Part shown: positions 4,360 to 38,704 of the stretch, piece after piece
Numbering within the stretch: the stretch's first letter is position 1
Layout of the letters: every line of letters starts with the position of its first letter
Assembly (NCBI GenBank): GCA_943356775.1
Contig: CALRFU010000004.1
Coordinates: 8,546-72,545 of the forward strand
Direction: 5' to 3'
DNA: 64,000 bases
Origin: Candidatus Nomurabacteria bacterium
Lineage (GTDB): Bacteria > Patescibacteriota > Minisyncoccia > Phycocordibacterales > UBA2100
Notes under the pieces: model-generated
Told to the model about the DNA's origin: nothing
The model's database searches: none
The model's input: the letters and a program-made list of their open reading frames with translations, nothing else
Position numbers and translations under genes: made by a program

Positions 4360-4430
4360 TCGGGGCGCCGAGAATCGAACTCGGTCAACTTGCTCCCAAA
4401 GCAAGCGTACTACCGGTATACTACGCCCCG
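4360..4430 (-). tRNA. tRNA-Pro (anticodon TGG)
   Basis: The cloverleaf has the C1:G72 acceptor pair typical of bacterial tRNA-Pro, the anticodon arm CTTGC-TTTGGGA-GCAAG and the T-loop GTTCGATTC. Confidence 0.85.
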
Positions 4431-6429: not shown

Positions 6430-6503
6430 TGGTGCGGGTACGGAGAATCGAACTCCGCTCTCGTCCTTGGCAAGGACGCGTTCTACCACTAAACCATACC
6501 CGC
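6430..6503 (-). tRNA. tRNA-Gly (anticodon GCC), with encoded CCA
   Basis: The reverse complement reads GCGGGTA...CGTCC-TTGCCAA-GGACG...GGAGTTCGATTCTCC-GTACCCGC-ACCA. Confidence 0.9.
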
Positions 6504-6556: not shown

Positions 6557-6628
6557 TGCTCCCGGAGGGATTCGAACCCCCAACAACAGCTTCGAAGGCT
6601 GGCATGATATCCATTTCACCACGGGAGC
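6557..6628 (-). tRNA. tRNA-Arg (anticodon TCG). The anticodon assignment is moderately certain.
   Basis: The cloverleaf has acceptor GCTCCCG/CGGGAGC, anticodon loop CTTCGAA and T-arm GGGGG-TTCGAAT-CCCTC. There is one mismatch at the base of the anticodon stem. Confidence 0.7.
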
Positions 6629-8426: not shown

Positions 8427-8674
8427 TGTTGTCTCCGATTCCTCCAAAGGAATTGAATAATTACTGCAAGTACCTAGGCGTTCAATCGGTCACGGAGGCG
8501 ACCGTAATTTTTAGAACATGAGTACTTTGTAATGTATTTACTCGACCATTAGAGGTGCGAGAGACATAAAGAGCAACTAGGATGAATCTTATCGCTGTAT
8601 TGGACACTGTAAAGGACAGACTGTTGATAACTGCTCTGTTTAGCATGTCCTTTAAAGGACATCCCTAAATAAGC

Positions 8675-14635: not shown

Positions 14636-16843
14636 ATGGAAAAGAAAGTATATTCTCTCGATATCGGGGGGAAGACGATGACAGCAGAGTTTAACGATTG
14701 GGCAGACCAGGCGAATGGTTCGGTACTCGTGCGCTACGGCAACAGCACCGTCTTGGCGACTGCCGTTATGGGCAAGGAGTCAGACAAAGATTATTTCCCG
14801 CTCTCCGTTGAATACGAGGAGAAGTTTTATGCTGCGGGAGCGATACTCGGCTCACGATTTATGCGTCGCGAAGGTCGCCCCTCAGATGAAGCCATCCTCT
14901 CGGGCCGCATCGTCGACCGCACCATCCGTCCGCTCTTCCCCAAAGGAATGAAACGCGAGGTGCAGGTCATCATTTCCGTCCTCTCTATAGAGGAGTACGA
15001 CACCGACATCTTGGCGGTCAATGCGGCATCGCTCGCACTCGCAACATCCGATATCCCGTTCAACGGGCCTGTCTCTTCGCTGCGTGTCGGTCTTGAAGAG
15101 TCCGTCGACTCCGCTCAGAATAAAGGAAATCCTGTATTTATCGTGAATCCTACATACAAACAGCGTGACGAAGAGTTCGAACCGAAGGCCCTCTTGGACC
15201 TCACGGTCTGCGGAAAAGACGGCCTCATCAACATGATAGAAGTCGGTGCACGCGAAGTAGATGAATCGATCCTTGAAAAATCTCTCGCGCTCGCAAGTGA
15301 AGAAATCGAGAAAATTCAAGCATGGCAGAAATCCATCATCGCCGAACGAGGCAAAACGAAATGGGAATTCAAGGCACTGGAGACAACGCCTGAGCTCGTC
15401 GCGGCGTTTGCGGAGTTCGTCGAGCCAAAATTACAGGCGTCCGGAGGCAAACTCCCGAAGCAGGAGCTTGGTCCAATGAAATCCGAATGGATGAAGGCGG
15501 CTACAGAGAAACTTCCCGAGATGCCGAAAGGTCAACTCGATGCGTACTACGAAGAGCGTCTCGACGCATTCGTGCACGACCTTGCCATCAACGAAGACAA
15601 ACGCGTCGACGGCCGAACACTCGACCAAATCCGTCCGCTCTTCGCACAGGCAGGTGGTGTTTCTCCCGTTATTCACGGCACCGGTATTTTCTACCGCGGC
15701 GAGACACACGTACTTGCAGCGCTCACGCTCGGCGGCCCCGGCGACGCACAGCTTCTCGATACGATTGAAAATCGGGACACGAAGAAGACGTTCATGCTCC
15801 ACTACAATTTCCCGCCCTTCTCGGTGGGAGAGACAGGTCGCGTCGGAGGATTCAACCGTCGTATGACAGGACACGGCGCGCTCGCCGAGAAAGCATTGCG
15901 CGTCATGATGCCTTCGAAAGAAATCTTCCCCTACACCGTACGCATCGTTTCTGAATGTCTCGCTTCCAACGGCTCGACATCAATGGCTACTGTCTGCGCG
16001 GGCACTATCGCACTCATGGATGCGGGCGTCCCTATCACACGTCCGGTCGCCGGCATCGCGATGGGAATGATGAGTGATGCAAAGAAGGGAGCGTACAAAG
16101 TTCTCACCGACATCCAAGGTCCTGAAGACCACCACGGAGATATGGACTTCAAGGTTGCCGGTACGTCAGAGGGAGTAACCGCTGTCCAGATGGACGTGAA
16201 GGTGGAAGGAGTCCCGCTCAAGGTGCTCGCCGAAGCTTTTGCTCAGGCCAAGAAAGCGCGTTTGCAGATTCTCGACGTCATCACGAAAGAAATCGCAGCT
16301 CCGCGCGCAGACATCAGCGAACGCGCTCCGAAGATTCTCACCATTGTCGTCAAAAAGGATCAGATAGGACTCGTCATCGGTCCGGGCGGCAAGATGATAA
16401 ACGGTATTCGTGAGCGCACCCTCGTTGACGACATCACCATCGAAGAAGACGGCACGATATTCATCACCGGCAAGACCGGCGCGGCAGAAGCGGCACTCAA
16501 GGAGATTGCCGACCTCACACGCGAATACATGGTGGGTGACAGATTCGAGGGACCTGTTGTGCGGCTCATGGACTTCGGCGCGTTCATAAAAATCAGCCCT
16601 ACTCAAGACGGCCTCGTGCACGTCTCTGAAGTTGCACCTTTCCGCATCGGGAAGATTTCCGACGCAGTACAGATTGGAGAGATTGTTCCGGTCGTATTGA
16701 AAGAAATTGACGAGAAAGGACGCTATAATCTCTCTATCAAAGCAGCTGATCCGGAGTGGGCCGCACGCAAGGGGCTCACACCTGACACAAGCGGCGGAGA
16801 TAACCATGGCGGACGAAGCGAAAGACCAAGACGCAATTTCTAA
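14636..16843 (+). CDS. pnp: Polynucleotide phosphorylase
   Basis: The 735-aa product has two RNase PH domains followed by KH and S1 domains. The N-terminus MEKKVYSLDIGGKTMTAEF is typical of PNPase. Confidence 0.9.
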   Translation: MEKKVYSLDIGGKTMTAEFNDWADQANGSVLVRYGNSTVLATAVMGKESDKDYFPLSVEYEEKFYAAGAILGSRFMRREGRPSDEAILSGRIVDRTIRPLFPKGMKREVQVIISVLSIEEYDTDILAVNAASLALATSDIPFNGPVSSLRVGLEESVDSAQNKGNPVFIVNPTYKQRDEEFEPKALLDLTVCGKDGLINMIEVGAREVDESILEKSLALASEEIEKIQAWQKSIIAERGKTKWEFKALETTPELVAAFAEFVEPKLQASGGKLPKQELGPMKSEWMKAATEKLPEMPKGQLDAYYEERLDAFVHDLAINEDKRVDGRTLDQIRPLFAQAGGVSPVIHGTGIFYRGETHVLAALTLGGPGDAQLLDTIENRDTKKTFMLHYNFPPFSVGETGRVGGFNRRMTGHGALAEKALRVMMPSKEIFPYTVRIVSECLASNGSTSMATVCAGTIALMDAGVPITRPVAGIAMGMMSDAKKGAYKVLTDIQGPEDHHGDMDFKVAGTSEGVTAVQMDVKVEGVPLKVLAEAFAQAKKARLQILDVITKEIAAPRADISERAPKILTIVVKKDQIGLVIGPGGKMINGIRERTLVDDITIEEDGTIFITGKTGAAEAALKEIADLTREYMVGDRFEGPVVRLMDFGAFIKISPTQDGLVHVSEVAPFRIGKISDAVQIGEIVPVVLKEIDEKGRYNLSIKAADPEWAARKGLTPDTSGGDNHGGRSERPRRNF

Positions 16844-18431
16844 GACCGGCACTACGCCGAACGTTGCCCCTACACCGCAACCCCAGACTACAGAACCGGA
16901 GGTGCACATCCTCGAGGAGCACGTGACGCGTGCAGCACAAAAACCGGCGGTTCAAAGTACCGGAAATCCCGTACCGGCGGCGCAAGCTGTGTCCGATCCT
17001 ATCGGTGTGCCGGAGACAAAGCCTGCCGCACCGAAAGCGCCTACGGTAAGCCCGTCGCCGACGCCGACTACTCCGGTACCACCCCCGGCAATCGCTGCAC
17101 CAAGTCCCACCCCTCGACCTGTGACACAACCTGATACCGTAGCGGAAGATGTCGGACTCGTCCGGCAAACTCGGAATGTACCAACTCCTATAGCTCCTCC
17201 CATACCCCCGTCCTCTCCCGTACAAGAACGGCCTACAGTGCCCCCCTCGGCGCAAAAGATTGTGGCGTCAAGCCAAGGCGAACACGCGCTGGGGAACGAC
17301 ATAGCAAAAATACTTGCGGAAGTTAAGCTGCCCGAACGCCGCAGTGCGGGCACTTCAGCCGACAAACTTGTCCCATCCGGAGCAAAAAAATTCGACACAG
17401 GTATTGTTGGTTCTGCGTTAAACGAGGGAACACCCTCTGCCGCAACCGCCTCGCAATCGCCGCAAGCAAGTACGGTAAATACTCCGACCGAGGTTACACC
17501 AGCCACGCAAAATCCCGGAGGGATGAAGGTGATGGAGAAGAACCCGAGTAGCGTCGTGGCCGTTCACACACTCAAAGACGATTTGCAGGCAGTGGTACAC
17601 GATCAAAAGATATCAGTTGTACGGGCTGTTTCTCTCGAAGAGGACCGCCGCGCTCATAAAGGATTACAGGCGGGCGAGACCTTAGGAACCCAACAGCGCT
17701 CGAGCCGAACATTTGGAATACTCTTCGCCTCACTGACCCTCATCGGCCTCGGCTCCGGCGCGCTTTTCGGTGTCCTTTTCATTATGAATCAACAAAAAGC
17801 GCCCGCACAAATAGATACGGGTACCTCGATACTCTTCGCCGAGCAGAGTGTTCTGCTCTCTCTCGATGCTCAATCACCCCAAAACATAAAAAGGGCACTT
17901 AGCTTGGGACGAACTTCATCACAGGGTGCGCTCGGGTCCATCACCCGGGTCATTCCCGTGACCGCAGAGGCGGGCCCCGACGAGGCACCACAAAATCGCC
18001 CGGCAACATTCAGGGAGTTTATGGCGGCACTAGGAGCACATCCGCCCGATGACCTCTTGCGCGCTCTGGGGGATGACTTCTTTCTTGGTATACACGCTGC
18101 GGACAAAAGTGCTCCCCTCATTGTCATTCCCGTCGCCTCCCATTCGCGCGCGTTCGCAGCGATGCTGAGTTGGGAAGAAGCGCTGAACTCCGACTTCGTA
18201 CCCCTCTTCACCGCCGTTCCTACCCTTACATTCGACGGAAACGGCGTCCCGTCCAAACGTACCTACGAAGATTTGATTATGCGCAATTATGATGTCCGCG
18301 CGCTCAAAGACGATGCAGGGGAAGTCCAAATATACTATTCGTTCCCGACACAAAACATCCTCATCATCGCGGAAAGCCCCTATTCATTCCCCGAAATATT
18401 GAGTCGTCTGCAGGCGGGCCGTCAACTCTAG
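16806..18431 (+). CDS. Hypothetical Pro/Thr-rich protein with a single TM segment. Its start overlaps the pnp 3' end by about 38 nt.
   Basis: The product has a low-complexity Pro-rich N-terminal half, the TM segment TFGILFASLTLIGLGSGALFGVLFI, and a C-terminal globular region. Confidence 0.4.
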   Translation: MADEAKDQDAISKTGTTPNVAPTPQPQTTEPEVHILEEHVTRAAQKPAVQSTGNPVPAAQAVSDPIGVPETKPAAPKAPTVSPSPTPTTPVPPPAIAAPSPTPRPVTQPDTVAEDVGLVRQTRNVPTPIAPPIPPSSPVQERPTVPPSAQKIVASSQGEHALGNDIAKILAEVKLPERRSAGTSADKLVPSGAKKFDTGIVGSALNEGTPSAATASQSPQASTVNTPTEVTPATQNPGGMKVMEKNPSSVVAVHTLKDDLQAVVHDQKISVVRAVSLEEDRRAHKGLQAGETLGTQQRSSRTFGILFASLTLIGLGSGALFGVLFIMNQQKAPAQIDTGTSILFAEQSVLLSLDAQSPQNIKRALSLGRTSSQGALGSITRVIPVTAEAGPDEAPQNRPATFREFMAALGAHPPDDLLRALGDDFFLGIHAADKSAPLIVIPVASHSRAFAAMLSWEEALNSDFVPLFTAVPTLTFDGNGVPSKRTYEDLIMRNYDVRALKDDAGEVQIYYSFPTQNILIIAESPYSFPEILSRLQAGRQL

Positions 18432-24348: not shown

Positions 24349-27300
24349 TTGCAAGTGAAATATCTCGAAGGCCTCAATACGGCTCAAAAGGAGGCTGTTT
24401 TGCACGTTGACGGCCCACTTTTGATTGTCGCGGGGGCCGGAGCAGGCAAAACTAAGACTATTGTGCACCGCATCGCACATCTAATAGAAGAGAATATACC
24501 CGCCTCGTCAATACTTGCCGTCACTTTCACCAACAAGGCCGCCGGCGAGATGCGCGACCGGGTCCGGAGCCTCCTCGAAGGCAAGCGGGGCGGGCTGCCT
24601 CTCGTTGCCACATTCCACTCACTGGGGGTCAGGCTCCTGCGGGAGTTCCACGAAGCAGCGGGAATACCGCGAGGTTTTAGTATTTGGGATCGCGACGACA
24701 GTTTGCGTGCTGTGAAAGCCGAGCTCAAACGTCTCGACACTGATGAATGGACGCCGCGACAGATACTCGGTGCCATATCGCGCGAGAAGGGCGGGGGAAA
24801 GACGCTCGCCGAGTACCGCGAACGTGCCTCAAGCCGACGGGAGCAAGCCGTCGCGCAATTATGGGAGCGGTACGAGCAGGCACTAAAAGAGGAGGACGGG
24901 CTCGACTTCGACGACTTGCTCGTACGGACCCTCTCGCTCGTACGCGAATCCCCTCAGATACTTTCTCTTTTGCAGAACCGCTGGCGCTATATCATCGTCG
25001 ATGAATATCAGGACACGAGCAGCGTGCAATACGAACTTATGAAGCTTTTGAGTGGTGAACGCGCCAATATGTGCGTCGTCGGTGACCTGGACCAATGTCT
25101 TGTTGCTGGCACAGAGATTACGATGGCGGATGGCAGCAAAAAGCCGATTGAATTCGTGCGCAAAGGCGACAGTATACTCTCTAATTACGGGGGCGGACGC
25201 ATGCGAGCCGCCAGAGTCACGCGTTCACGTTCACGTTTCTTCTCGGACGACCTTGTCGCACTCACATTCAAATCCGGAAAAAGACTCGTGAGTACGCCTA
25301 AACACATGCACTTCGCCGGATATAAACTGGGGATTGTTCCGCAGACGTATTTTACCTACCTCATGCACAAACGACAGGTTGGATGGCGTATGGGAGTCTC
25401 GCAAGTGTACACAAAAGGTCAGCGAGCGCCGATGGTTGGATTCCAGCAACGCTGCAATCATGAACACGCAGACAAAGTCTGGATTATCGGCACGCACACA
25501 TCGGTGAACGAGGCGCGCATTCTTGAATACACACTCTCACTAGAATACAGAATACCGACCCTCCCGTTCGTGGCGCGAAAAGGGATCAGCAAAAACGGGT
25601 ATGTACACGACCAACAGTCGATCTTCAGCATATTCAAATATTTCGATACCGAGACATCGGCGCGCGCGTTACTCAAGGCACGTGACCTCTCCTACGAATA
25701 CCCGCACCATCGCGCGCAAGCAACGACCGGCGGACGACGCAATATAATCATAACGCTGTGCGGAAGCGAAAGGAAGTCAACGGCGATGCACCGCATAAGT
25801 CTCGCCGCGAGTGATCCAATGGACAAACAAGCGCTTGAATCGATCGGACTCAGGGTACGTCCCGCAAAACGCGGATCACAAAACTGGCGATTTGAAACTG
25901 CGTACAAGGACTATGGTGTGTTGCGCGAGATCGTGAGAAAAATACAGGCAGTCCTACCACATGCGGAAGTCGTTGAAACGGCGCGTCTCGGCGGCAACAA
26001 AAAGCGCCCAAAAGACGGAAACTCTCTCCCGTATCTTCCAGCCGCTTCAATCATGCCCGGAATGGCGATGTTTGATGGGAAAAGCAATCACGCTATCGTT
26101 GAAAAAGTTGAGCGTATACCGACAAAAAATATCCGTGTGTATGATCTCGATATCGAAGGCACGCATAACTTCATCGCGAACGACATCATCACTCACAACT
26201 GCATCTACACGTGGCGGCAGGCGGAGATAGAGAACCTGCTCTCCTTTGAACGCGTGTTCCCGAATGTGAAGGTCGTCCGACTCGAACAAAATTACCGCTC
26301 CACACGGACAATCATCGCCGCGGCAAATGCAGTGATAGAAAAGAACACAAATCGCATCCCAAAAACACTTTTCAGCGAGAACGAGACCGGTGACCCTATC
26401 ACGATGCACGGCGCCTTAGACGAACGGTACGAAGCATGGTTTGTAGCCGAACAGGCGGCGGCACTCATCGACAAAGGCGTGCCCGCGCACGAGATAGCCG
26501 TCCTCTATAGAGAGAACTCCCAGTCGCGTGTACTTGAAGAAGCGCTTTTGCATGCGGGACTGCCATATCGCGTCCTGGGTACACGCTTCTTCGAACGCAA
26601 AGAGGTGAAGGATGTCCTTTCGTATCTTCGCGCCGCCGTCAATCCGAAAGGGAAGGGCGATCTCATGCGCATTGTCGGCGTACCTCCGCGCGGCATCGGC
26701 AAGGTAACGCTTGAGAAGATGTTTGCGGGGCAACCACTCGGCGCAGCCGGCTCAAAAGTCGCCGCGTTCCGGGAAACACTCGAGAAAATCCGCCACGCGG
26801 TGAATACGTTGCCCACGTCGGAGGCGGTGCGCTTTTGTATCGAAGCAAGCGGCATACAAAAGATGTACGGAGGCAAGACGGAGGAGGACGCTGAGCACCT
26901 CGGCAACGTGCGTGAACTTGCGAACCTCGCGGCAAAGTACGAAAGTGACGAACCCCCCGCGGGTATTGAACGGCTTTTGGAGGAAGCGGCGCTCCAGAGC
27001 GAGCAAGACGAACTCACTATCAATCAAGGCAAGAGCGGAATATCGCTCATGACGGTCCACGCGGCGAAAGGTTTGGAATTTGATGCGGTCTTCGTTGTCG
27101 GCTTGGAACAAGGACTGTTTCCTTCTATACGCAACGACGACTCACGTGACCCCGAGGAAGAGCGCCGCCTCTTCTATGTCGCGCTGACGCGGGCACGCAA
27201 GCATCTATTCCTCAGCTATGCCTACGAACGCACCAAATACGGCACCCGTGAGAGTGCACTGCCCTCAGAATTTCTTTCTGATATTGATGTGCGGTTACTC

Positions 27301-29437: not shown

Positions 29438-30328
29438 GTGAGCGCCTCGCTCTCTTCCGTGCGTTATACTAATCGTGTGGAAATAGAACGCGCGTACAAA
29501 AGCGGGCGTGTTTGTCCTACTTTCGTAGGCAGGCATTCTACCGTCTCTCTCACACAGCATGGTTTCTCTCATATCTTTATTACTGCAGCCGTATCTCTCG
29601 TCGTTCTCGTCGGCGTAGTGGGCTGGCAAATCAACAGTTTCGTGCGCGACCGCAGCGACGCGACATCGTACATTGCCACGTCCGATTCGCTCGACTCTGA
29701 CGCCGCGAACACAGACCCTTTAGCTGACAGCTCTCTCTTTGGTATAGATCCTGGCACCACACCAATTGGCTCTGCAGTGCTGGACAGTGTCGTAGAAAAA
29801 TACTTATCTCTGCAGTCACAAGGTCTTTACACACCCGAGGTAGGAGAGAAAGCTGCAGAAAAGATGGCGGAGGGCCTCACTGCTCCCACAGAGCATCGAA
29901 CCTACGCTGCCGCAGATATCCAGACGAGCGCCGATACATCCTACGCACGCATGATTACGTATCGAACCGACTTGCAACTCTCCCTCATGCCTCTCCTTAA
30001 AAATACCGAGCCTGAATATGAGGTTTTCGCATACTACGTAAGCACACGAGATAAAAAACACCTCGAGAAACTCAAGGCTGCCGCACAAAATTACCGTGCC
30101 GCAGCACAGGCGACCGCACACGTCGTCCCGCCGAAGGACGCGCTCTCTCAGCATGTTGGCATTCTGAACGCGCTCGAAGCATTCGCTGCAGCGCTCGATG
30201 CATTGGCCGTAAACGCAGAGGACCCATTCGCTTCCGTGGTCGTTCTCCGCGGATACAACCAAGCTGAGACCGGTGTCCTCACCTCGTTCGCATCTCTTGC
30301 TAAGTACTACCGAGAGAAACAATCATGA
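29438..30328 (+). CDS. Hypothetical membrane-anchored protein (GTG start) with architecture similar to 28508-29395
   Basis: The product has TM segment ITAAVSLVVLVGVVGW. The stop overlaps the next gene's ATG (ATGA). Confidence 0.4.
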   Translation: MSASLSSVRYTNRVEIERAYKSGRVCPTFVGRHSTVSLTQHGFSHIFITAAVSLVVLVGVVGWQINSFVRDRSDATSYIATSDSLDSDAANTDPLADSSLFGIDPGTTPIGSAVLDSVVEKYLSLQSQGLYTPEVGEKAAEKMAEGLTAPTEHRTYAAADIQTSADTSYARMITYRTDLQLSLMPLLKNTEPEYEVFAYYVSTRDKKHLEKLKAAAQNYRAAAQATAHVVPPKDALSQHVGILNALEAFAAALDALAVNAEDPFASVVVLRGYNQAETGVLTSFASLAKYYREKQS

Positions 30329-32487
30329 GTATGAAACGCTCCCTCTTTGCCATTCTACTGTTCAGTGCGCTCGGTATAGTACCGCTTGTTACTCTCGCTC
30401 AGACTGACATGACAGCACCGACCTCTCCCACGAATCTGCGCGCATCAGCCGTCTCCTCCTCTGCGATTCTTCTAACTTGGAACGCTTCTACGGATGCGAG
30501 CGGGGTACAGGGCTACAAAATATACCGAGCGACTGCTCCAAGTACGACCACCGTACAGGTCGCGACATCGACCACCCTCTCATTCCAAAATTCAGGTCTC
30601 GCCCCTGCGACAAATTACATCTATAGTGTCGCTGCGTACGATACGGCTGGCAATACATCCGCGAAGTCTACGCCCGCATCGACCGCAACGCAGGCGAGTA
30701 CAGGAACTTCGGGGGGAACGGGCTCGACTGGAACGGGGAGCACTGGGGGGACGGGGACAACCGGCACAGGGAGCACGGGTACTGGGAGCACGGGTACTGG
30801 GAGTACGGGTACTGGGAGCACGGGCGGCACAGGAACGGGGAGCGGAACGCCCCCCGCCAGTCTTGACCTTCAGCGACAAGGAATTTTCGATTGTAATCAA
30901 AACGGGGCATACGCAATGAGTGTCGGGGCACTCGGTGCGACGGGCGGCGTGTATGTACCGGTTGCGGACTCGACGGTTGAGCTAAATACCGGCACGCTTG
31001 TCTACAAAGAGTGCGTCTTGAGAGAGGTCGTAAACCGAGAGCGCGAAGCCGCGACTGCTGGTCTCGGAAGAACGGCGATAAGCGCAATCCAAACTGGTCG
31101 CAACGGCTCACCCCAGTATGTGGTAGACCAAGACATGGAGATCCTGCTTGGAGCGAATGACCCTGCCTTTCTTGCTTTCCTGCGAGATGATGCGCTATGG
31201 CAAAATGTGCACCCCGCCATTCGAAATCCCCTCAAGCGCGCTGCGGTACGAGCGTACGAAGCCAAGACTGGTGCTCCCGGAGCAATGATTGCTTGTCCCT
31301 ACAAGGGCGACCTTGAAGCGTTCCGAACCGGCAAAACCAGATTTTCAATAGCGACTTTCCTTGAGGCTACCGCTCCTCAGTGCGACCCGGTAATCGCAGC
31401 TGCTCTCCTCGAGGAGATTAGCAACGCGCGCATCGCGAAGTGCACCCAGTATATACGCGACCAATGGGACTGGGGAGGCGGGTACTACGCAAAGACAGAC
31501 GATCCAAACAACCCTTGCTCGGCGAAAATCCTGACCCCCGCCTCAACCATCCAGCAATCGTTCCAGACTATTATCGACAGCCCCGTGCGCCAGCTTGAAA
31601 GCGCCAACGACATCGGACAAATGATAAACGCCCTGTATGCAGGCTTGACGACGCAGATAATCTCGGACAACAAGGGTCTCGCTGGGCTCACCCAATCCAT
31701 CGCTGGTCAGCCGCGGTACATAGACAGAGTGGTGCAGGAGGCAGCTCAAGGACTCCGCAATGCCGCGACCAACGTTGCCATACAAAATCTCCAGGTCGCA
31801 CAGCGCATAGAGGCTCTGTACTTACAGACGGTAAATGCGATGGGGGCGGCACTCACGACGGCAATACAACAGTTGCGCAGCGCGGAGAAACAGTGTTGGG
31901 ACCTCATCGTCTACCAGAATGACGGAAAGCCCGAGCGGCATGTGTGTGCGGGTCCGCTTGCCGCCGACAAGACATGTACTTCATATGTGGGAGGGTGTAC
32001 GACTGACACTCAAACAGGTACGCAAACATGTCCCGCCGGCGCTGTTCTCCAGGTCTCCACCTCCACCGCATTTTCACAATCGGTTATCACACGAAGTATT
32101 CAACCGCTCGCAACCACAACCTTGGCGCGTATCGAATCGTCGCAAAACGCGCTTAATCTGATTGGTAGATTGATCGAGGGCGTCACGGGCTCTTCACTCG
32201 ACGCCCAGCGCCTTGCAATCGTGCAGCTCAATTCGCTCGTCGCTCAAAAATTGCTCCACATCCAGCCCGACCTCGACGGACCAAATGGCGTCATCAAACA
32301 ATTGGATAATATACAGACAGCAATACTGGGTAGCGAGGGGCTGGTCGTGACGACAATCAAGGCGTGGGCTGACTCAACAAATATCCCCCCAGGATGGTGC
32401 AACGTGAACAATCCGGCGGTCCTCGAGGCATGGAAAAAATGTTGGAATAAAAATAATCCAGACCGCTCCGCCTGCCCTACACCATGA
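30325..32487 (+). CDS. Large secreted protein with a fibronectin type III-like domain and a Gly/Thr low-complexity linker
   Basis: The product has a signal peptide and an FN3-like region NLRASAVSSSAILLTWNASTDASGVQGYKIYRA...YIYSVAAYDTAGN. The linker reads (GSTGT)n. Confidence 0.55.
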   Translation: MSMKRSLFAILLFSALGIVPLVTLAQTDMTAPTSPTNLRASAVSSSAILLTWNASTDASGVQGYKIYRATAPSTTTVQVATSTTLSFQNSGLAPATNYIYSVAAYDTAGNTSAKSTPASTATQASTGTSGGTGSTGTGSTGGTGTTGTGSTGTGSTGTGSTGTGSTGGTGTGSGTPPASLDLQRQGIFDCNQNGAYAMSVGALGATGGVYVPVADSTVELNTGTLVYKECVLREVVNREREAATAGLGRTAISAIQTGRNGSPQYVVDQDMEILLGANDPAFLAFLRDDALWQNVHPAIRNPLKRAAVRAYEAKTGAPGAMIACPYKGDLEAFRTGKTRFSIATFLEATAPQCDPVIAAALLEEISNARIAKCTQYIRDQWDWGGGYYAKTDDPNNPCSAKILTPASTIQQSFQTIIDSPVRQLESANDIGQMINALYAGLTTQIISDNKGLAGLTQSIAGQPRYIDRVVQEAAQGLRNAATNVAIQNLQVAQRIEALYLQTVNAMGAALTTAIQQLRSAEKQCWDLIVYQNDGKPERHVCAGPLAADKTCTSYVGGCTTDTQTGTQTCPAGAVLQVSTSTAFSQSVITRSIQPLATTTLARIESSQNALNLIGRLIEGVTGSSLDAQRLAIVQLNSLVAQKLLHIQPDLDGPNGVIKQLDNIQTAILGSEGLVVTTIKAWADSTNIPPGWCNVNNPAVLEAWKKCWNKNNPDRSACPTP
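30700..30850 (+). repeat. Tandem 15-bp repeat (actgggagcacgggt, about 4-5 copies) encoding GSTGT repeats, inside a wider Gly/Thr/Ser-rich linker
   Basis: The repeat is read directly from the sequence at about 30764-30825. Confidence 0.6.
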
Positions 32488-34964
32488 GTATGTCAACTCG
32501 AAATAACCACGTGCATATCCTAGTGTCTATCATCTTAGTAGGCATGCTGTTACCAGTCTTCGTTGAGGCAATGACAGCGGATGCGTATCTAAGCCTTGTC
32601 GCCACGCAGAGACAACAAAATAAGCAGCGCCCCCTGAACACGGCAGAAACAAACGCAACCGTGACCGCATGGAATTCACTCTCAGAAAATCAACGACTCT
32701 ATGTAGAAAATCGAATAGCGGCAATACAAGCAAACATTGCCCGATACGGCGGCAATCTTCCCATCGGAGCTGCCATAGGAGTGATTGGTAACGGATACGA
32801 TCAGTTGCCACCTAACGAACAGGGAATACTTACTAAAGATGCGAAGGAAGAGGCTGCAAACCCGCAAAAGAGATCGTCCGCATCATGGTGCTCTGGCATT
32901 GTGGACTGTCTAATGCTGATACCAAGTGCGATAGGAAAGGCTATTTTTACACTCCTTGGCGGATTTCTACTTGAACTAAGTAGGGTGATTCTCGGGATCG
33001 CGGGGCTTTTGTTCAATCTATTGATCGAGAAGACCATCATACAATTTGGCACCTTCTACGGGGATATGAAACCCGCGGTCGAGCAAGCCTGGACAGCGTT
33101 TCGCGATATCGCGAATATTCTCATTATTGGAATCTTTACGTTTATCGCAATCTCCATCATTCTCGGACTCAAAGAGTACGGTCAAAAGAAAATGATTGCG
33201 AACGTCCTCATCATCGCAGTGATGATAAATTTCAGTCTGCTGTTTGCAAAAATGATAATCGATGCGTCGAATTACACTGCCGCGCAGATATACACCGCCG
33301 CCGCTCTTGGGGGGACAGGAGGGACAACGGGCGGAACAGCAGGTGCTGCCTCGACACAAACGACCTACGGAATAGCCGACCAGTACATGAACCTGCTTGG
33401 AGTCGGATCGGTGGGTGGGTCCTTTAATGTTCTGTGGGATGTGCCCGGCGCTTGGGCCACCCTTAGTCACAGCATTTTTATGACGATGATTCTGCTGGGC
33501 GCCGCCTTGGTACTTTTTTATGGATGTTTTCTTCTCGCATCACGCATGATTATGCTCATATTCCTTATGGTAACCGCATCAATCGCATTCGCGAGTTATC
33601 TTATTCCTAAGTGGGCAGGAAGCTCTTACGGATGGAGCGCCTGGTGGAGCTCACTCCTCTGGTGCGCGGCGCTCGCACCGATACTCATGTTCTTTCTCTG
33701 GATGACACTCAACGTCTCGTACGCCCTCAAGGGGACTTCGAGCCCAAATTTAAGCGCCGCACTTTCGAACCCCTCGGTTTCGACCATCGGCTTTCTCCTC
33801 AATTACCTTCTTATCCTCGGTCTTCTCTTCGGCACATTCAAGATCTCGAGCATGGCGGCAAACAAGATCGGCGGATTTAGCTTCGCGCAAATGGCAACCG
33901 CGCTTCCGCTCACCATGGGTTCTCGATTCCTTGTAGGAGGCCTGGGGCGATTAGCTGTAGGAGCTCCTGCGTATTTTAAAGGGAAAAGTTTGACCAAGGA
34001 GGCTCGTGGTTTACGCAATGAGGCAGCGCAGGCTGAATTAGCAGCAAAGAGACACGAAAGTTTCGGGAATCTTGGATTGGCGGATCAGGCGCGAGCAGAG
34101 GCGAAGAGAAAGCGAGACGAGGCTGCCGGAAAGATACAGCGAGCCGGTCTTATGGGTACACTTGCCAGTAGTAAGTTTAACGTGATGGATACTGCGGGAG
34201 CTAAAGCCGTTATGGGCGCTGTTGGAGTAAAAGGTTTCGCAGCAGGGGCATCATCTAAAATGATGTTCGAAAAAGGTATCGCAGACCGAGTTGAAACACG
34301 GGCTAAGGCGGCAGAAAAAATGGCGGCAAAGATGGCCCCCTCGACAGAGCAAAACGACGATGCTGAGAACGAAGCGCGGCGTGTTGTTCGCGAACAGAGG
34401 CAGGTGGCACTGGCCCAGCTTGAAGCAACGAGAGATGCTACAAAGACAACTGAGCAGCTCGAACAGAAATTGACTACAGCAAATCAAGACGCTAAGACAG
34501 TTGAGGATACGGCTTCGAAGGAAAAGGCGCGTATCCAAACCGACCCAACGATAGGACAGCAACGGCGACAGGGGCTAATGAAGGCGGAAGACGATAAGAT
34601 CGAGAGAGCTGCCGCGACCGTACAGGCGGTACAAAACAGGATTAACTTCTTAGATAAGCCCGCAAAAGATCATGACGCGGAAACGGAGCGGCTCGCGAAA
34701 AAGGCAGGCGATGACATCGTTGGGGCTATGCGGGACAGCGCCATTGACATTGCCGAACGAATTGGAGAAAAACAAGGAGATATTTTTACGCGCGCATTTG
34801 GAACCCTCAATAGAGAAAATAAAGCTGTTGCCGACGAGACAAAAGATATGTACAAGAAAAAAGTAAAAACTGCGAGGTTCCGAGATGCAATAAAGTTGAC
34901 TCAAGATGAGGATGGAGGGGGTGCCGCACCAGCGGCCGCCGCGCCGACAACCCCCCATCCGTAG
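32484..34964 (+). CDS. VirB6/TrbL-like (PrgH-like) polytopic membrane protein with a long charged coiled-coil C-terminal tail
   Basis: The product has a signal/N-terminal domain, at least six TM helices, and a Lys/Glu/Ala-rich tail. It sits immediately upstream of the VirB3/VirB4 homologues. Confidence 0.5.
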   Translation: MSMSTRNNHVHILVSIILVGMLLPVFVEAMTADAYLSLVATQRQQNKQRPLNTAETNATVTAWNSLSENQRLYVENRIAAIQANIARYGGNLPIGAAIGVIGNGYDQLPPNEQGILTKDAKEEAANPQKRSSASWCSGIVDCLMLIPSAIGKAIFTLLGGFLLELSRVILGIAGLLFNLLIEKTIIQFGTFYGDMKPAVEQAWTAFRDIANILIIGIFTFIAISIILGLKEYGQKKMIANVLIIAVMINFSLLFAKMIIDASNYTAAQIYTAAALGGTGGTTGGTAGAASTQTTYGIADQYMNLLGVGSVGGSFNVLWDVPGAWATLSHSIFMTMILLGAALVLFYGCFLLASRMIMLIFLMVTASIAFASYLIPKWAGSSYGWSAWWSSLLWCAALAPILMFFLWMTLNVSYALKGTSSPNLSAALSNPSVSTIGFLLNYLLILGLLFGTFKISSMAANKIGGFSFAQMATALPLTMGSRFLVGGLGRLAVGAPAYFKGKSLTKEARGLRNEAAQAELAAKRHESFGNLGLADQARAEAKRKRDEAAGKIQRAGLMGTLASSKFNVMDTAGAKAVMGAVGVKGFAAGASSKMMFEKGIADRVETRAKAAEKMAAKMAPSTEQNDDAENEARRVVREQRQVALAQLEATRDATKTTEQLEQKLTTANQDAKTVEDTASKEKARIQTDPTIGQQRRQGLMKAEDDKIERAAATVQAVQNRINFLDKPAKDHDAETERLAKKAGDDIVGAMRDSAIDIAERIGEKQGDIFTRAFGTLNRENKAVADETKDMYKKKVKTARFRDAIKLTQDEDGGGAAPAAAAPTTPHP

Positions 34965-36769: not shown

Positions 36770-38704
36770 ATGGCGCTTCTGGACTTATTCAAGAAAACCA
36801 AGCCCGAAGACGGGCCGAACATCCTCCCCGTCCTACCCGAGGAAATATACAAATCAGGCATTCTGGATTTGCAGGACGTCATCGCGCCGCATGCGCTGCG
36901 TATCAATTCCCGCGAGCTCGACTTGGGCGAGAAAATCGCGCGCACATTCTTCGTCATTTCATATCCACGTTTTTTGACGACGGGCTGGTTCGCACCTATC
37001 ATCAACATGGACAAGGTCATCGATATTTCCATCTTCATACACCCGATGGATACGAATGAGATGCTCCGCAAATTCCAAAAGAAGGTCGCCGAGGTGCAGA
37101 GTCAGATATCCACACGTGAGTCAAAGGGGATGGTGCGCGACCCGATGCTCGATACCGCGTATTCAGACCTCGAACAACTGCGCGATTCTCTCCAGCAAGC
37201 ACAAGAACGCATCTTCGAAGTAGGTCTCTATCTCACCATCTACGGTAGTACGCGCGAAGAGATAGACAAAGTCGAGACAGAAGTACGCTCCATTCTCGAA
37301 TCGCGTCTCGTCTACATCCGACCTGCGCTTTTCCAGCAAGAGCAAGGATTCCGAAGTGTGCTCCCGCTCGCGACTGACGAGATAAACGTCCATACCAAAC
37401 TCAATTCCGCTCCGCTGTCTTCCATATTCCCGTTCATTTCCTTCGACCTCACCTCAGACCGCGGCATTCTCTACGGCATCAACCGTCACAACTCGTCACT
37501 CATCCTTTTCGACCGGTTCAGCCTCGAAAACTACAACTCCGTGACCTTCGCGAAATCCGGCGCGGGAAAATCCTACACGACCAAGCTGGAAATACTCCGG
37601 AGTCTCATGTTCGACACGGAAGTTATCGTAATTGACCCTGAGCGCGAATACGAGTACCTCGCCGAGACGGTCGGCGGACGCTACTTCAACATCTCACTCT
37701 CGTCTGAGCACCACATCAATCCCTTCGACCTGGCCATTCCGAGAGAAGACGAGAACCCCGGCGATATTCTGCGCAACAACATCATCACGCTCGTCGGGCT
37801 CTTCCGCATCATGTTGGGCGGTCTTACACCAGAGGAAGATGCGGTCATTGACCGTGCTATCACAGAGACATACGCCCTGAAAGACATTTCTGCAGATGCA
37901 AATTTCGCCCTCGTCGAACCGCCTCTTCTCAGTGACTTCGAGCTCGTGCTCTCTGGCATGGAAGGGAGCGAGTCTTTGGTCGCGCGATTATCGAAATACA
38001 CAAAAGGCACGTGGTCGGGATTCATGAACCGCCCGACAAATGTCGACATGAACAAAAAACTCATCGTATTCTCCGTACGCGACATGGAAGACGATTTGAA
38101 GCCGGTCGCCATGTACATCATCACGCACCACATTTGGAATGCCGTGCGCAAAGAACTCCGCAAGCGGCTGCTTATCATCGACGAGGCGTGGTGGATGATG
38201 CGCTCAGAAGACACGGCGTCGTTCCTTTTCTCTATCGCAAAGCGCGGACGCAAATACTTCCTCGGCATCTCGACGATTACCCAAGACGTTTCCGACTTCT
38301 TAAACTCGCCCTACGGCATCCCCATGATTACTAACTCCTCGATCCAGATGCTCCTGCGTCAATCGCCCACATCAGTCGACCTTGTGCAACAGACGTTTAA
38401 ACTCTCCGACGAGGAAAAGTACCTGCTCCTCGAATCCGATGTGGGGGAGGGAATTTTCTTCGCGGGTCTCAAACACGTCGCTATCAAAGTCATCGCCTCA
38501 TATACCGAAGACCAGATAATTACTTCCGATCCTTCGCAGATTCTCGCTATCAAGAAAGCAAAACAAGACCTCGCCGCGGCGAATGAGGGAGGGCCCGGTA
38601 CCGCCGAGGTCGCGGCCGGCGCAGCACAGCAGGCTGAACGCGCGCAATCAGCATCAGTTAATTTCAACCCGTCCGAGGCTCCCGCGACGACACCCCAACA
38701 ATGA
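36770..38704 (+). CDS. VirB4/TraE/PrgJ-family conjugal ATPase, central and ATPase domains
   Basis: The Walker A motif is FAKSGAGKSYT and the Walker B-like motif is LLIIDEAWWMM. The conserved region ISYPRFLTTGWFAPIINMD is present. Confidence 0.8.
   Translation: MALLDLFKKTKPEDGPNILPVLPEEIYKSGILDLQDVIAPHALRINSRELDLGEKIARTFFVISYPRFLTTGWFAPIINMDKVIDISIFIHPMDTNEMLRKFQKKVAEVQSQISTRESKGMVRDPMLDTAYSDLEQLRDSLQQAQERIFEVGLYLTIYGSTREEIDKVETEVRSILESRLVYIRPALFQQEQGFRSVLPLATDEINVHTKLNSAPLSSIFPFISFDLTSDRGILYGINRHNSSLILFDRFSLENYNSVTFAKSGAGKSYTTKLEILRSLMFDTEVIVIDPEREYEYLAETVGGRYFNISLSSEHHINPFDLAIPREDENPGDILRNNIITLVGLFRIMLGGLTPEEDAVIDRAITETYALKDISADANFALVEPPLLSDFELVLSGMEGSESLVARLSKYTKGTWSGFMNRPTNVDMNKKLIVFSVRDMEDDLKPVAMYIITHHIWNAVRKELRKRLLIIDEAWWMMRSEDTASFLFSIAKRGRKYFLGISTITQDVSDFLNSPYGIPMITNSSIQMLLRQSPTSVDLVQQTFKLSDEEKYLLLESDVGEGIFFAGLKHVAIKVIASYTEDQIITSDPSQILAIKKAKQDLAAANEGGPGTAEVAAGAAQQAERAQSASVNFNPSEAPATTPQQ

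Follow-up and report, generated by a model that had tools for sequence, protein, structure and literature searches.

What is the domain nested inside the intein that interrupts a uvrD/pcrA helicase gene of a Candidatus Nomurabacteria bacterium, and what does it do there? The gene lies on contig CALRFU010000004.1 (assembly GCA_943356775.1), in a stretch of 64,000 nucleotides (positions 8,546 to 72,545 of the forward strand) that we analysed as a whole and call the window; positions given below are counted from its first letter. The intein itself is ordinary. The novelty resides in its nested domain, which is unmatched by any described endonuclease family, and as an overall explanation we consider it likely that the gene carries a spliced intein with a nested homing endonuclease of an undescribed type that is active or was so recently. 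To our knowledge, only few nuclease folds drive homing, and in-frame intein endonucleases are essentially LAGLIDADG and HNH enzymes.

An intein in motif III of UvrD/PcrA

Translation of positions 25096-26199 gives 368 amino acids without stops, running from CLVAGTEITMADGS... to ...VYDLDIEGTHNFIANDIITHN, with ...VVGDLDQ directly before and CIYTWRQA directly after (Table 1). The preliminary description of this locus had placed a full-size intein of 368 amino acids in motif III of UvrD/PcrA, and its coordinates and junctions are exact, an agreement far outside what chance would give. In the protein encoded by this open reading frame (ORF), Pfam locates the UvrD-helicase domain at residues 9-250 (E 1e-75) and UvrD_C (PF13361) C-terminal of the insert (E 8e-71), and the best NCBIfam models, those of PcrA, UvrD and Rep, are each broken at residues ~250/617. 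The protein itself is not on record in public gene tables.

The insert carries the signals expected for splicing. The models PF14890 Intein_splicing (40.4 bits, curated cut-off 35.8) and TIGR01443 intein_Cterm (29.5 bits, curated cut-off 15.6) both score above threshold, the C-terminal part matches the C-termini of mini-inteins in a PDB sequence search, and the N-terminal Hint part gives weak Hom_end_hint, Vint and intein_Nterm matches only (Pfam, NCBIfam). The class-1 features are all present: Cys1, a TPKH block B and H367-N368/C369 (here and below, a slash marks a splice junction or insertion site). They are shared by the relatives described below, since Cys1 is kept across the 72 loci having both junctions, TP[EK]H is kept in the family alignment, and the C-terminal junction reads [HS]N/[CS] in all loci where both junctions were found. 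Because the junctions, the matches above curated thresholds, the TPKH block and the HN/Cys+1 pair are present, the insert is almost certainly a class-1 intein of the motif-III UvrD family.

An AlphaFold2 model of the intein was built from 21 trimmed homologues and reached a mean predicted local distance difference test score (pLDDT) of 88.7 and a predicted template modelling score of 0.85. In this model, residues 1-81 and 303-368 together form a Hint domain, which Foldseek matches to PI-SceI, the Tli and Pho VMA inteins, PI-PfuI, bacterial intein-like (BIL) domains and mini-inteins (E 1e-7 to 1e-4, probability 1.00). The layout is that of PI-SceI/VMA, PI-PfuI and PI-TkoII, in which a nested domain likewise splits the Hint fold between blocks B and F and which share Cys1, a TxxH block and a terminal HN with a +1 nucleophile. 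Unlike these inteins, the window intein has no separate DNA-recognition region inside its Hint domain, and its nested domain is not LAGLIDADG by Pfam, element order or template modelling (TM) score (~0.2). The Pfam search and structure prediction that the preliminary description had proposed for the 368 residues thus found the Hint fold and left the class of the endonuclease unmatched.

A two-lobed nested domain under strong constraint

Between splicing blocks B and F lies an in-frame, two-lobed domain of ~235 residues, the lobes of which are joined by two helices in the model. The predicted elements of lobe A are strands 85-92 and 96-107, helix 115-123, strand 127-134 and helix 137-151; pLDDT in these blocks is mostly 87-98, falling to 73-79 over residues 101-120, which cover the end of beta2 and the start of alpha1. 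Alignment of lobe A with lobe B by hhalign gave no signal of an internal duplication.

In 51 diverse family members, which share 28-57% identity with the window sequence, seven residues are invariant (Y88, R98, G100, R119, E123, D126 and E144), all of which fall in lobe A. The near-invariant residues of lobe B are P203, H204 and H232. Lobe A is the candidate catalytic lobe and lobe B the candidate DNA-binding lobe. To measure constraint, we took the ratio of nonsynonymous to synonymous substitution rates (dN/dS) in 93 pairs of genomes with at least 80% extein identity. Median values were 0.067 (lobe A), 0.088 (lobe B), 0.085 (exteins) and 0.145 (Hint part). The nested domain is also more conserved than the exteins across phyla: identity is 65% for the nested domain against 49-51% for the exteins in the comparison with locus L008, and 52% against 39-41% in that with Hydrocarboniphaga. 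The nested domain is therefore not degenerate and stands under strong purifying selection, and it is very probably functional. The preliminary description had considered a homing endonuclease that was either degenerate or of an unrecognised type; the dN/dS of 0.067-0.088 and the seven invariant residues speak against the first and leave the second as the favoured one.

A large family at one site in bacteria and phages

An initial search with the intein returned 31 proteins, all UvrD-type helicases and many of them broken gene calls. A profile of the nested domain matched 1,819 representatives of protein clusters, built at 50% identity, with E <= 1e-3; the stricter limit of E <= 1e-10 left 906. 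All 12 of the 12 oddly placed hits or unusually long proteins that were checked with Pfam are UvrD-like helicases. About 70 of the 93 full-coverage hits show the pattern GDxxQ/C...HN/[SC]I[YF]xx[RA]G, and nearly all the others are truncated fragments or cases in which a loose junction pattern caught a nearby match. Every family member examined occupies the motif-III site of a UvrD-like helicase. In genomes of GTDB species representatives, at least 195 stretches were confirmed with one peptide pattern, and 80 of these loci were retrieved. In 72 of the 80, a single ORF holds both junctions, and most of these ORFs are full-length, with ~1000-1200 codons; the intein measures 357-371 amino acids in the loci with both junctions. 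Thus, the intein belongs to a very large family specific to motif III of UvrD-like superfamily 1 (SF1) helicases.

The best-matching species representatives are metagenome-assembled genomes of Candidatus Kaiserbacteria (77-78% identity), by which the window would come from a CPR bacterium similar to Kaiserbacteria. Carriers include Saccharibacteria, Nomurabacteria, Nitrospira, Rubrobacter, Solirubrobacteraceae, Ktedonobacterales and Steroidobacteraceae, as well as Solimonas, Usitatibacter, Casimicrobium, Hyphomicrobiaceae and the isolate Hydrocarboniphaga effusa AP103, so that the range covers the candidate phyla radiation (CPR), Actinomycetota, Chloroflexota, Nitrospira and gamma-, beta- and alphaproteobacteria. 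A tblastn search of phage genomes gave 40 records with the nested domain, the phages being those of Escherichia, Klebsiella, Serratia, Salmonella and Campylobacter. When a profile was used to look for lobe A standing free or in other host proteins, all that it matched were short pieces of UvrD-intein genes whose calls are broken, and no free-standing form was among them.

For one of these phages, JohannJBalmer (Bas62, MZ501084), the record annotates bas62_0080 as an 'intein-containing UvrD / Rep family helicase precursor', that is, as 'intein' only, with no endonuclease type given. The intein of Bas62 and of related Justusliebigvirus and Phapecoctavirus phages sits at the same site (VVGDEFQ/CVSEN...LSHN/CIYQFRG). 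Its nested domain is likewise two-lobed (tblastn E 1e-8, 26% identity over 85% of its length) and keeps the Tyr, the R-x-G, the second Arg, E123 and E144. Unlike the window intein, it is 347 amino acids long, lies in a phage rather than in a CPR chromosome and has Gln in place of D126. The statement that UvrD/PcrA inteins are uncommon, made in the preliminary description, does not hold for the motif-III site. Novikova et al. (2016) had already counted 16 UvrD inteins (PMC4760082), Bas62 is annotated, and all examined members of the family counted above have the intein at the motif-III site. The motif-III UvrD intein is not rare, and its existence was already known.

Some UvrD-like helicases carry two or three inteins (P0111 with 1210 aa, P0150, P0168 with 2536 aa, P0125, P0143 and P0172). 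At the second site of these multi-intein helicases, the inteins have a LAGLIDADG_3 or a DUF559/Vsr-like nested domain, the latter at residues 437-501 of P0111; this one would be an in-frame Vsr-like intein endonuclease, in itself something unusual.

Empty alleles, deletion variants and composition

A scan of metagenomes with the spliced junction peptide found an intein-less uvrD allele on contig Ga0209541_10110309 (L126:1501-1893), which is 89.7% identical in amino acids and 79.3% in DNA to the spliced window UvrD over 351 amino acids. It encodes an uninterrupted ...VVGDLDQCIYTWRQA... at the insertion site, and its DNA there reads ...GTGGGCGACCTCGACCAG/TGCATTTACACATGG... (also given as GTGGGCGACCTCGACCAG/TGCATTTACACATGGAGG), which is a natural empty target. 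A second intein-less allele (L127) is 79% identical. Both encode a contiguous VVGDLDQCIY[TA]WRQA, and the C-extein of the window is colinear with L126; that removal of the insert restores motif III, as had been proposed, is therefore seen in a natural allele that runs through the site. L126 is the nearest extein relative found, closer than any intein-bearing one, the exteins of the intein-bearing L003 and L004 being 76-84% identical to those of the window. Because the empty L126 is closer than L003 and L004, the intein is polymorphic among close relatives.

Furthermore, shortened forms occur at the same motif-III site. P0013, P0015 and P0022 have lost lobe A and kept lobe B (PHH...LCGDRRG...MHRIS...VRPAK), and P0021 and P0030 are near-mini inteins. 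This suggests a stepwise decay in which the putative catalytic lobe goes first, and the two kinds of variants are as expected for a homing cycle. With these variants and with intein-less alleles in close relatives, the finding that the preliminary description had named as one that would overturn it, homologues in which the 368 residues are a conserved, non-spliced domain of UvrD, is not borne out.

The composition of the intein differs from that of its host gene. In the window, the G+C content is 0.513 for the intein and 0.562 for the host gene, and across the family the G+C content at third codon positions (GC3) of the intein is ~0.10 below that of the exteins. The synonymous divergence (dS) of the intein is ~1.7 times that of the exteins, and in the genomes of the Usitatibacter group it is 1.5-2.4 against 0.4-0.6. 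Part of the dS excess may be artificial, because the exteins have a strong GC3 bias that could lower their dS. The intein is thus present or absent at one exact site among close relatives and spread over unrelated hosts. Empty alleles, shortened variants, composition and the spread across phyla and phages together form the pattern of a homing element. Since no other ORF is available in the intein, the endonuclease is most naturally sought in the nested domain, and homing is probably the function of this domain.

Of the other explanations, the one that survives best is a nested domain that is functional without being a homing nuclease, that is, a domesticated module for DNA binding or regulation, for conditional splicing or for some role after excision. 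Its constraint equals that of the helicase and its conservation across phyla exceeds that of the exteins, the ORF is uninterrupted in ~70 of the 80 species representatives, and whole clades carry the intein (Rubrobacter, Usitatibacter, Steroidobacteraceae and Saccharibacteria). A domain so well conserved, and kept for so long within clades, could be there for the benefit of the host and not for homing, and conditional-splicing roles have been proposed for inteins in repair proteins (PMC4760082; PMC5874633). However, the closest relatives carry intein-less alleles, deletion and mini variants stand at the site, and in the intein GC3 is lower and dS higher than in the gene around it. Moreover, the family is found at exactly one site in lytic coliphages and in phyla far apart, which requires some mechanism of site-specific invasion, and the invariant Y/R/R/E/D/E constellation confined to lobe A resembles a catalytic site. 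On balance, we regard a domesticated module as improbable and a homing endonuclease as the better account of the nested domain.

Comparison of the nested domain with known nucleases

Lobe A resembles GIY-YIG nucleases in the arrangement of its elements and motifs. As in I-TevI, the N-terminal domain of UvrC and the T5orf172 domains of phage ICP1, the predicted core of lobe A is beta-beta-alpha-beta-alpha. A Tyr lies on beta1, an R-x-G-x-[ST] on beta2 (in GIY-YIG, [Y/K/R]-x-G-x-[S/T]), an Arg on alpha1 and a Glu on alpha2, the Glu being followed by Y..P in both. R119 and E144 are invariant and lie on predicted helices 1 and 2, and they may be the equivalents of the catalytic Arg and Glu that GIY-YIG enzymes have on these helices. 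Three short-loop members (rows 29, 42 and 47 of the 51-member alignment) have a G-to-R spacing of +8, +8 and +10. The two members with +8 follow the pattern Y-(10)-R-x-G-(8)-R-(4)-E, whose distances are also those found in Thermotoga UvrC (Y19, Y29, G31, R39, Y43). HMMER and hhalign both place UvrC colinearly on lobe A in the correct register. T5orf172 is a subfamily of GIY-YIG (PMC10448857); the ICP1 domains, which were verified at 21-33 Pfam bits (cut-off 20), share [KR][IV]G.[ST].D...R.RQ with lobe A, and a single one of the 51 members gives a marginal Pfam match to T5orf172 (E 0.031). Several phage GIY-YIG homing endonucleases appear as weak Foldseek matches (E 0.02-0.2). The scores of hidden Markov models were higher for true GIY-YIG than for shuffled sequences (Wilcoxon p 2.5e-7), a tiny effect obtained with sequences that are not independent. 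The proposed role, that of a site-specific mobility nuclease, is also one that GIY-YIG enzymes have. In contrast to these enzymes, lobe A has the additional invariant residues E123 and D126, and a globular second lobe takes the place of a linker with NUMOD or helix-turn-helix elements.

A number of results weigh against such an assignment, or against a homing nuclease in general. Neither the window protein nor sets of 14 and 51 family members gave a significant match in the inner domain when compared at E <= 10 with Pfam, NCBIfam and PHROGs, and sequence and profile searches of the PDB with this domain gave nothing significant either. A Foldseek search of the central domain against the PDB had a best E of 0.024 at a TM score of ~0.2, which is not significant. 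When lobe A was compared by hhalign with alignments of UvrC-N, I-TevI-like and T5orf172 domains, with and without the loop insertion, scores were 11-18 and probabilities at most 4%, and the negative control of T5orf172 against lobe B scored 11. The positive control, T5orf172 against GIY-YIG, reached a score of 28.6 (probability 57%, E 1e-4) with equally thin alignments. In addition, the position of the Tyr in 'YIG' is taken by the invariant R98 in lobe A (Lys in T5orf172), the stretch from G100 to R119 is 18 residues longer in the window intein than in the members with the shortest loop, and D126 is the residue replaced in Bas62. Finally, both splicing and DNA cleavage are predictions.

We dropped the GIY-YIG classification since the hhalign comparison stayed at noise level while the control between T5orf172 and GIY-YIG worked, and the nested domain is not filed under GIY-YIG because the profile tests fail where the positive control succeeds. 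That lobe A is a divergent nuclease of the GIY-YIG/T5orf172 superfamily is a tentative and rather doubtful proposal. In a literature search we found no paper describing the nested domain, and GIY-YIG domains have been stated as not known in inteins (PMC1564403; PMC2677866). The domain may be a new family of intein-borne homing endonucleases, either the first in-frame member of the GIY-YIG superfamily in an intein or a wholly new nuclease fold, which would have carried one intein into motif III of SF1 helicases in bacteria of different phyla and in phages; we hold the chances of this full reading to be a little short of even.

A Foldseek search against viral models gave three significant matches: an unnamed 924-aa protein, a siphovirus DNA 3'-5' helicase and a myovirus 'adenine-specific DNA methyltransferase'. 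The last (BFVD A0A8S5TZY8, Myoviridae sp. ctCuC1, 782 aa) aligns over 133 columns with one lobe (root-mean-square deviation (rmsd) 2.8 A, 23% identity, E 1.6e-8), and by its name the nested domain may also occur outside UvrD.

A degenerate LAGLIDADG enzyme, which would have lost its LAGLIDADG helices and no longer cut, the intein being kept by vertical descent only, is very unlikely. I-OnuI, I-LtrI, I-AabMI and I-GzeII are among the weak top Foldseek matches in the PDB (E 0.03-0.13, ~255 columns), full-length LAGLIDADG inteins outrank mini-inteins when the whole model is used, and the pseudo-symmetric layout of two lobes made of a sheet plus helices is loosely saddle-like. However, these top matches have TM scores of ~0.2 with an rmsd of 17 A, are not significant, and are equalled by platforms of the major histocompatibility complex. 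None of the 51 members, nor the inner domain of the window protein, matches a Pfam LAGLIDADG or Hom_end model at E <= 10, the Hom_end_hint match being limited to residues 1-36, which belong to Hint. The model lacks the alpha-beta-beta-alpha-beta-beta-alpha fold of LAGLIDADG enzymes, its element order being beta-beta-alpha-beta-alpha in lobe A and beta-beta-alpha-beta-alpha-beta in lobe B. Decay is hard to reconcile with the low dN/dS (0.07-0.09), the seven polar residues that are invariant and a length that stays constant, and presence and absence of the intein at 90% extein identity points to recent mobility. HNH models of Pfam likewise gave no match at E <= 10 in the window protein and the 51 members, and lobe A has no invariant His. 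The preliminary description had found no obvious LAGLIDADG or HNH signature in this region, which agrees with the lack of any Pfam, NCBIfam or PHROGs match in residues ~75-310 at E <= 10.

A separate endonuclease, encoded out of frame or antisense within the intein with the in-frame region as a mere spacer, is documented for some actinobacteriophage inteins (bioRxiv 10.1101/2025.01.02.630785) and antisense frames are stop-free for up to 365 codons in high-GC members, but it is extremely improbable here, as the longest alternative-frame stop-free stretch is ~93-146 aa in low-GC members (window 101, L010 93, L003 102), no alternative frame is conserved, long antisense frames occur only at 60-72% GC, where composition leads one to expect them, and the in-frame region is conserved (dN/dS 0.08) with a confident fold.

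Natural split inteins were suspected from gene calls for N- and C-halves on one contig, and rejected as a general feature in view of the uninterrupted ORFs in most species representatives. Two interrupted loci lie on contigs that are syntenic with the window (uvrD, then rsmA). In L001:1381-1620 (GCA_009712145.1, VFSW01029310.1), lobe B has a single in-frame TAA (...PMHRI*IIGSD..., the asterisk being the stop) followed by a GTG-initiated gene call, and L002:2041-2280 has a 1-nt frameshift in a contig of 3x coverage. These interruptions could be sequencing errors, pseudogenes or incipient split inteins.

Proposed mechanism and its implications

If the nested domain is a homing endonuclease, the following course of events would fit our data. 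The precursor of 1006 aa would be translated and spliced by Cys1, the TPKH block, His-Asn and Cys+1, roles suggested by the motifs and the fold. Splicing would set free the intein (368 aa) and leave a helicase of 638 aa in which motif III is whole (VVGDLDQ-CIYTWRQA). Lobe A may be catalytic through Y88, R98-x-G100, R119, E123, D126 and E144 on its predicted beta-beta-alpha-beta-alpha core, and lobe B may bind the intein-less motif-III site of uvrD, about GTSGGYGACCTSGACCAR/TGCATYTACACRTGG. A cut at the empty site would then be repaired from the intein-bearing copy.

A precedent for an unusual endonuclease tied to an intein is that of the fractured genes (Dassa et al. 2009, PMC2677866), in which, as is putative here, an endonuclease that is neither LAGLIDADG nor HNH is associated with an intein in replication and repair genes, including helicases. 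Those genes have split inteins with free-standing GIY-YIG or Vsr-like genes, whereas the window intein is contiguous and its domain in frame.

A family of more than 1,800 clusters without a model in Pfam, NCBIfam or PHROGs thus occupies a motif that ranks among the best conserved in a universal repair helicase, and it bears marks of both function and mobility. Should the domain cut DNA, it would add a type of homing endonuclease to those of inteins, may link inteins to the GIY-YIG world, outside which they had been placed, and would provide a new scaffold for the recognition of long DNA sites. It would also explain how one intein colonised CPR bacteria, soil Actinomycetota, Proteobacteria and coliphages. 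Direct testing is feasible because homologues are found in cultured E. coli phages (e.g. Bas62) and in the isolate H. effusa AP103. In the annotation of metagenomes, many UvrD gene calls are split or truncated because of the motif-III intein family. In the 2.6-Mb 'complete' genome of Caloramator sp. Dgby_cultured_2 (L083, CP118396.1), uvrD, ligA and their neighbours are split into many short gene calls, which points to an error-rich, frameshift-ridden assembly; fragments of the intein appear there as spurious 'hypothetical protein' entries (P0186).

Coordinates and genomic context

Table 1. Features of the intein-bearing uvrD/pcrA gene and tRNA genes of the window
Feature	Position	Strand	Basis
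UvrD/PcrA ORF with intein, 1006 aa	24349..27369	+	ORF list
N-extein of UvrD/PcrA, 249 aa, ends ...VVGDLDQ (first half of motif III)	24349..25095	+	Pfam PF00580
Intein N-terminal Hint part, residues 1-81	25096..25338	+	translation; beta-strands 7-75 of the model; Foldseek matches to intein N-halves
Cys1 of intein	25096-25098	+	directly after ...GDLDQ
Block B TxxH, T67-P-K-H70	25294-25305	+	translation
Nested domain, lobe A, residues 82-160, predicted beta-beta-alpha-beta-alpha	25339..25575	+	secondary structure, invariant columns, dN/dS
Invariant codon Y88 (lobe A)	25357	+	
Invariant codon R98 (lobe A)	25387	+	
Invariant codon G100 (lobe A)	25393	+	
Invariant codon R119 (lobe A)	25450	+	
Invariant codon E123 (lobe A)	25462	+	
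Invariant codon D126 (lobe A)	25471	+	
Invariant codon E144 (lobe A)	25525	+	
Inter-lobe loop and two-helix connector, residues 161-202	25576..25701	+	model helices 173-182 and 185-195
Nested domain, lobe B, residues 203-302, PHH motif, then predicted beta-beta-alpha-beta-alpha-beta	25702..26001	+	model, alignment, dN/dS
Intein C-terminal Hint part, residues 303-368, blocks F/G ...VYDLDIEGTHNFIANDIITHN	26002..26199	+	TIGR01443, mini-intein C-termini in the PDB
His367-Asn368 of intein	26194-26199	+	translation
C-extein of UvrD/PcrA, begins with Cys+1 (26200-26202), CIYTWRQA, including stop codon	26200..27369	+	PF13361
tRNA genes	1573-1643, 4360-4430, 6433-6503, 6557-6628	-	only Rfam matches above gathering score in the window

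None of the ten largest proteins of the window other than UvrD/PcrA contains an intein. The window is otherwise an ordinary stretch of a CPR chromosome, with genes for PNPase, ComM, PolA, a class-A penicillin-binding protein, a PilB-type ATPase, a TraG-like ATPase and the CCA-adding enzyme. Two large ORFs, at 16707-18431 (+, 574 aa) and 32484-34964 (+, 826 aa), match no Pfam family at E <= 1e-5. The 826-aa ORF follows the gene of a 720-aa fibronectin-type-III protein (30325-32487) and lies upstream of that of the TraG-like P-loop ATPase (36770-38704).

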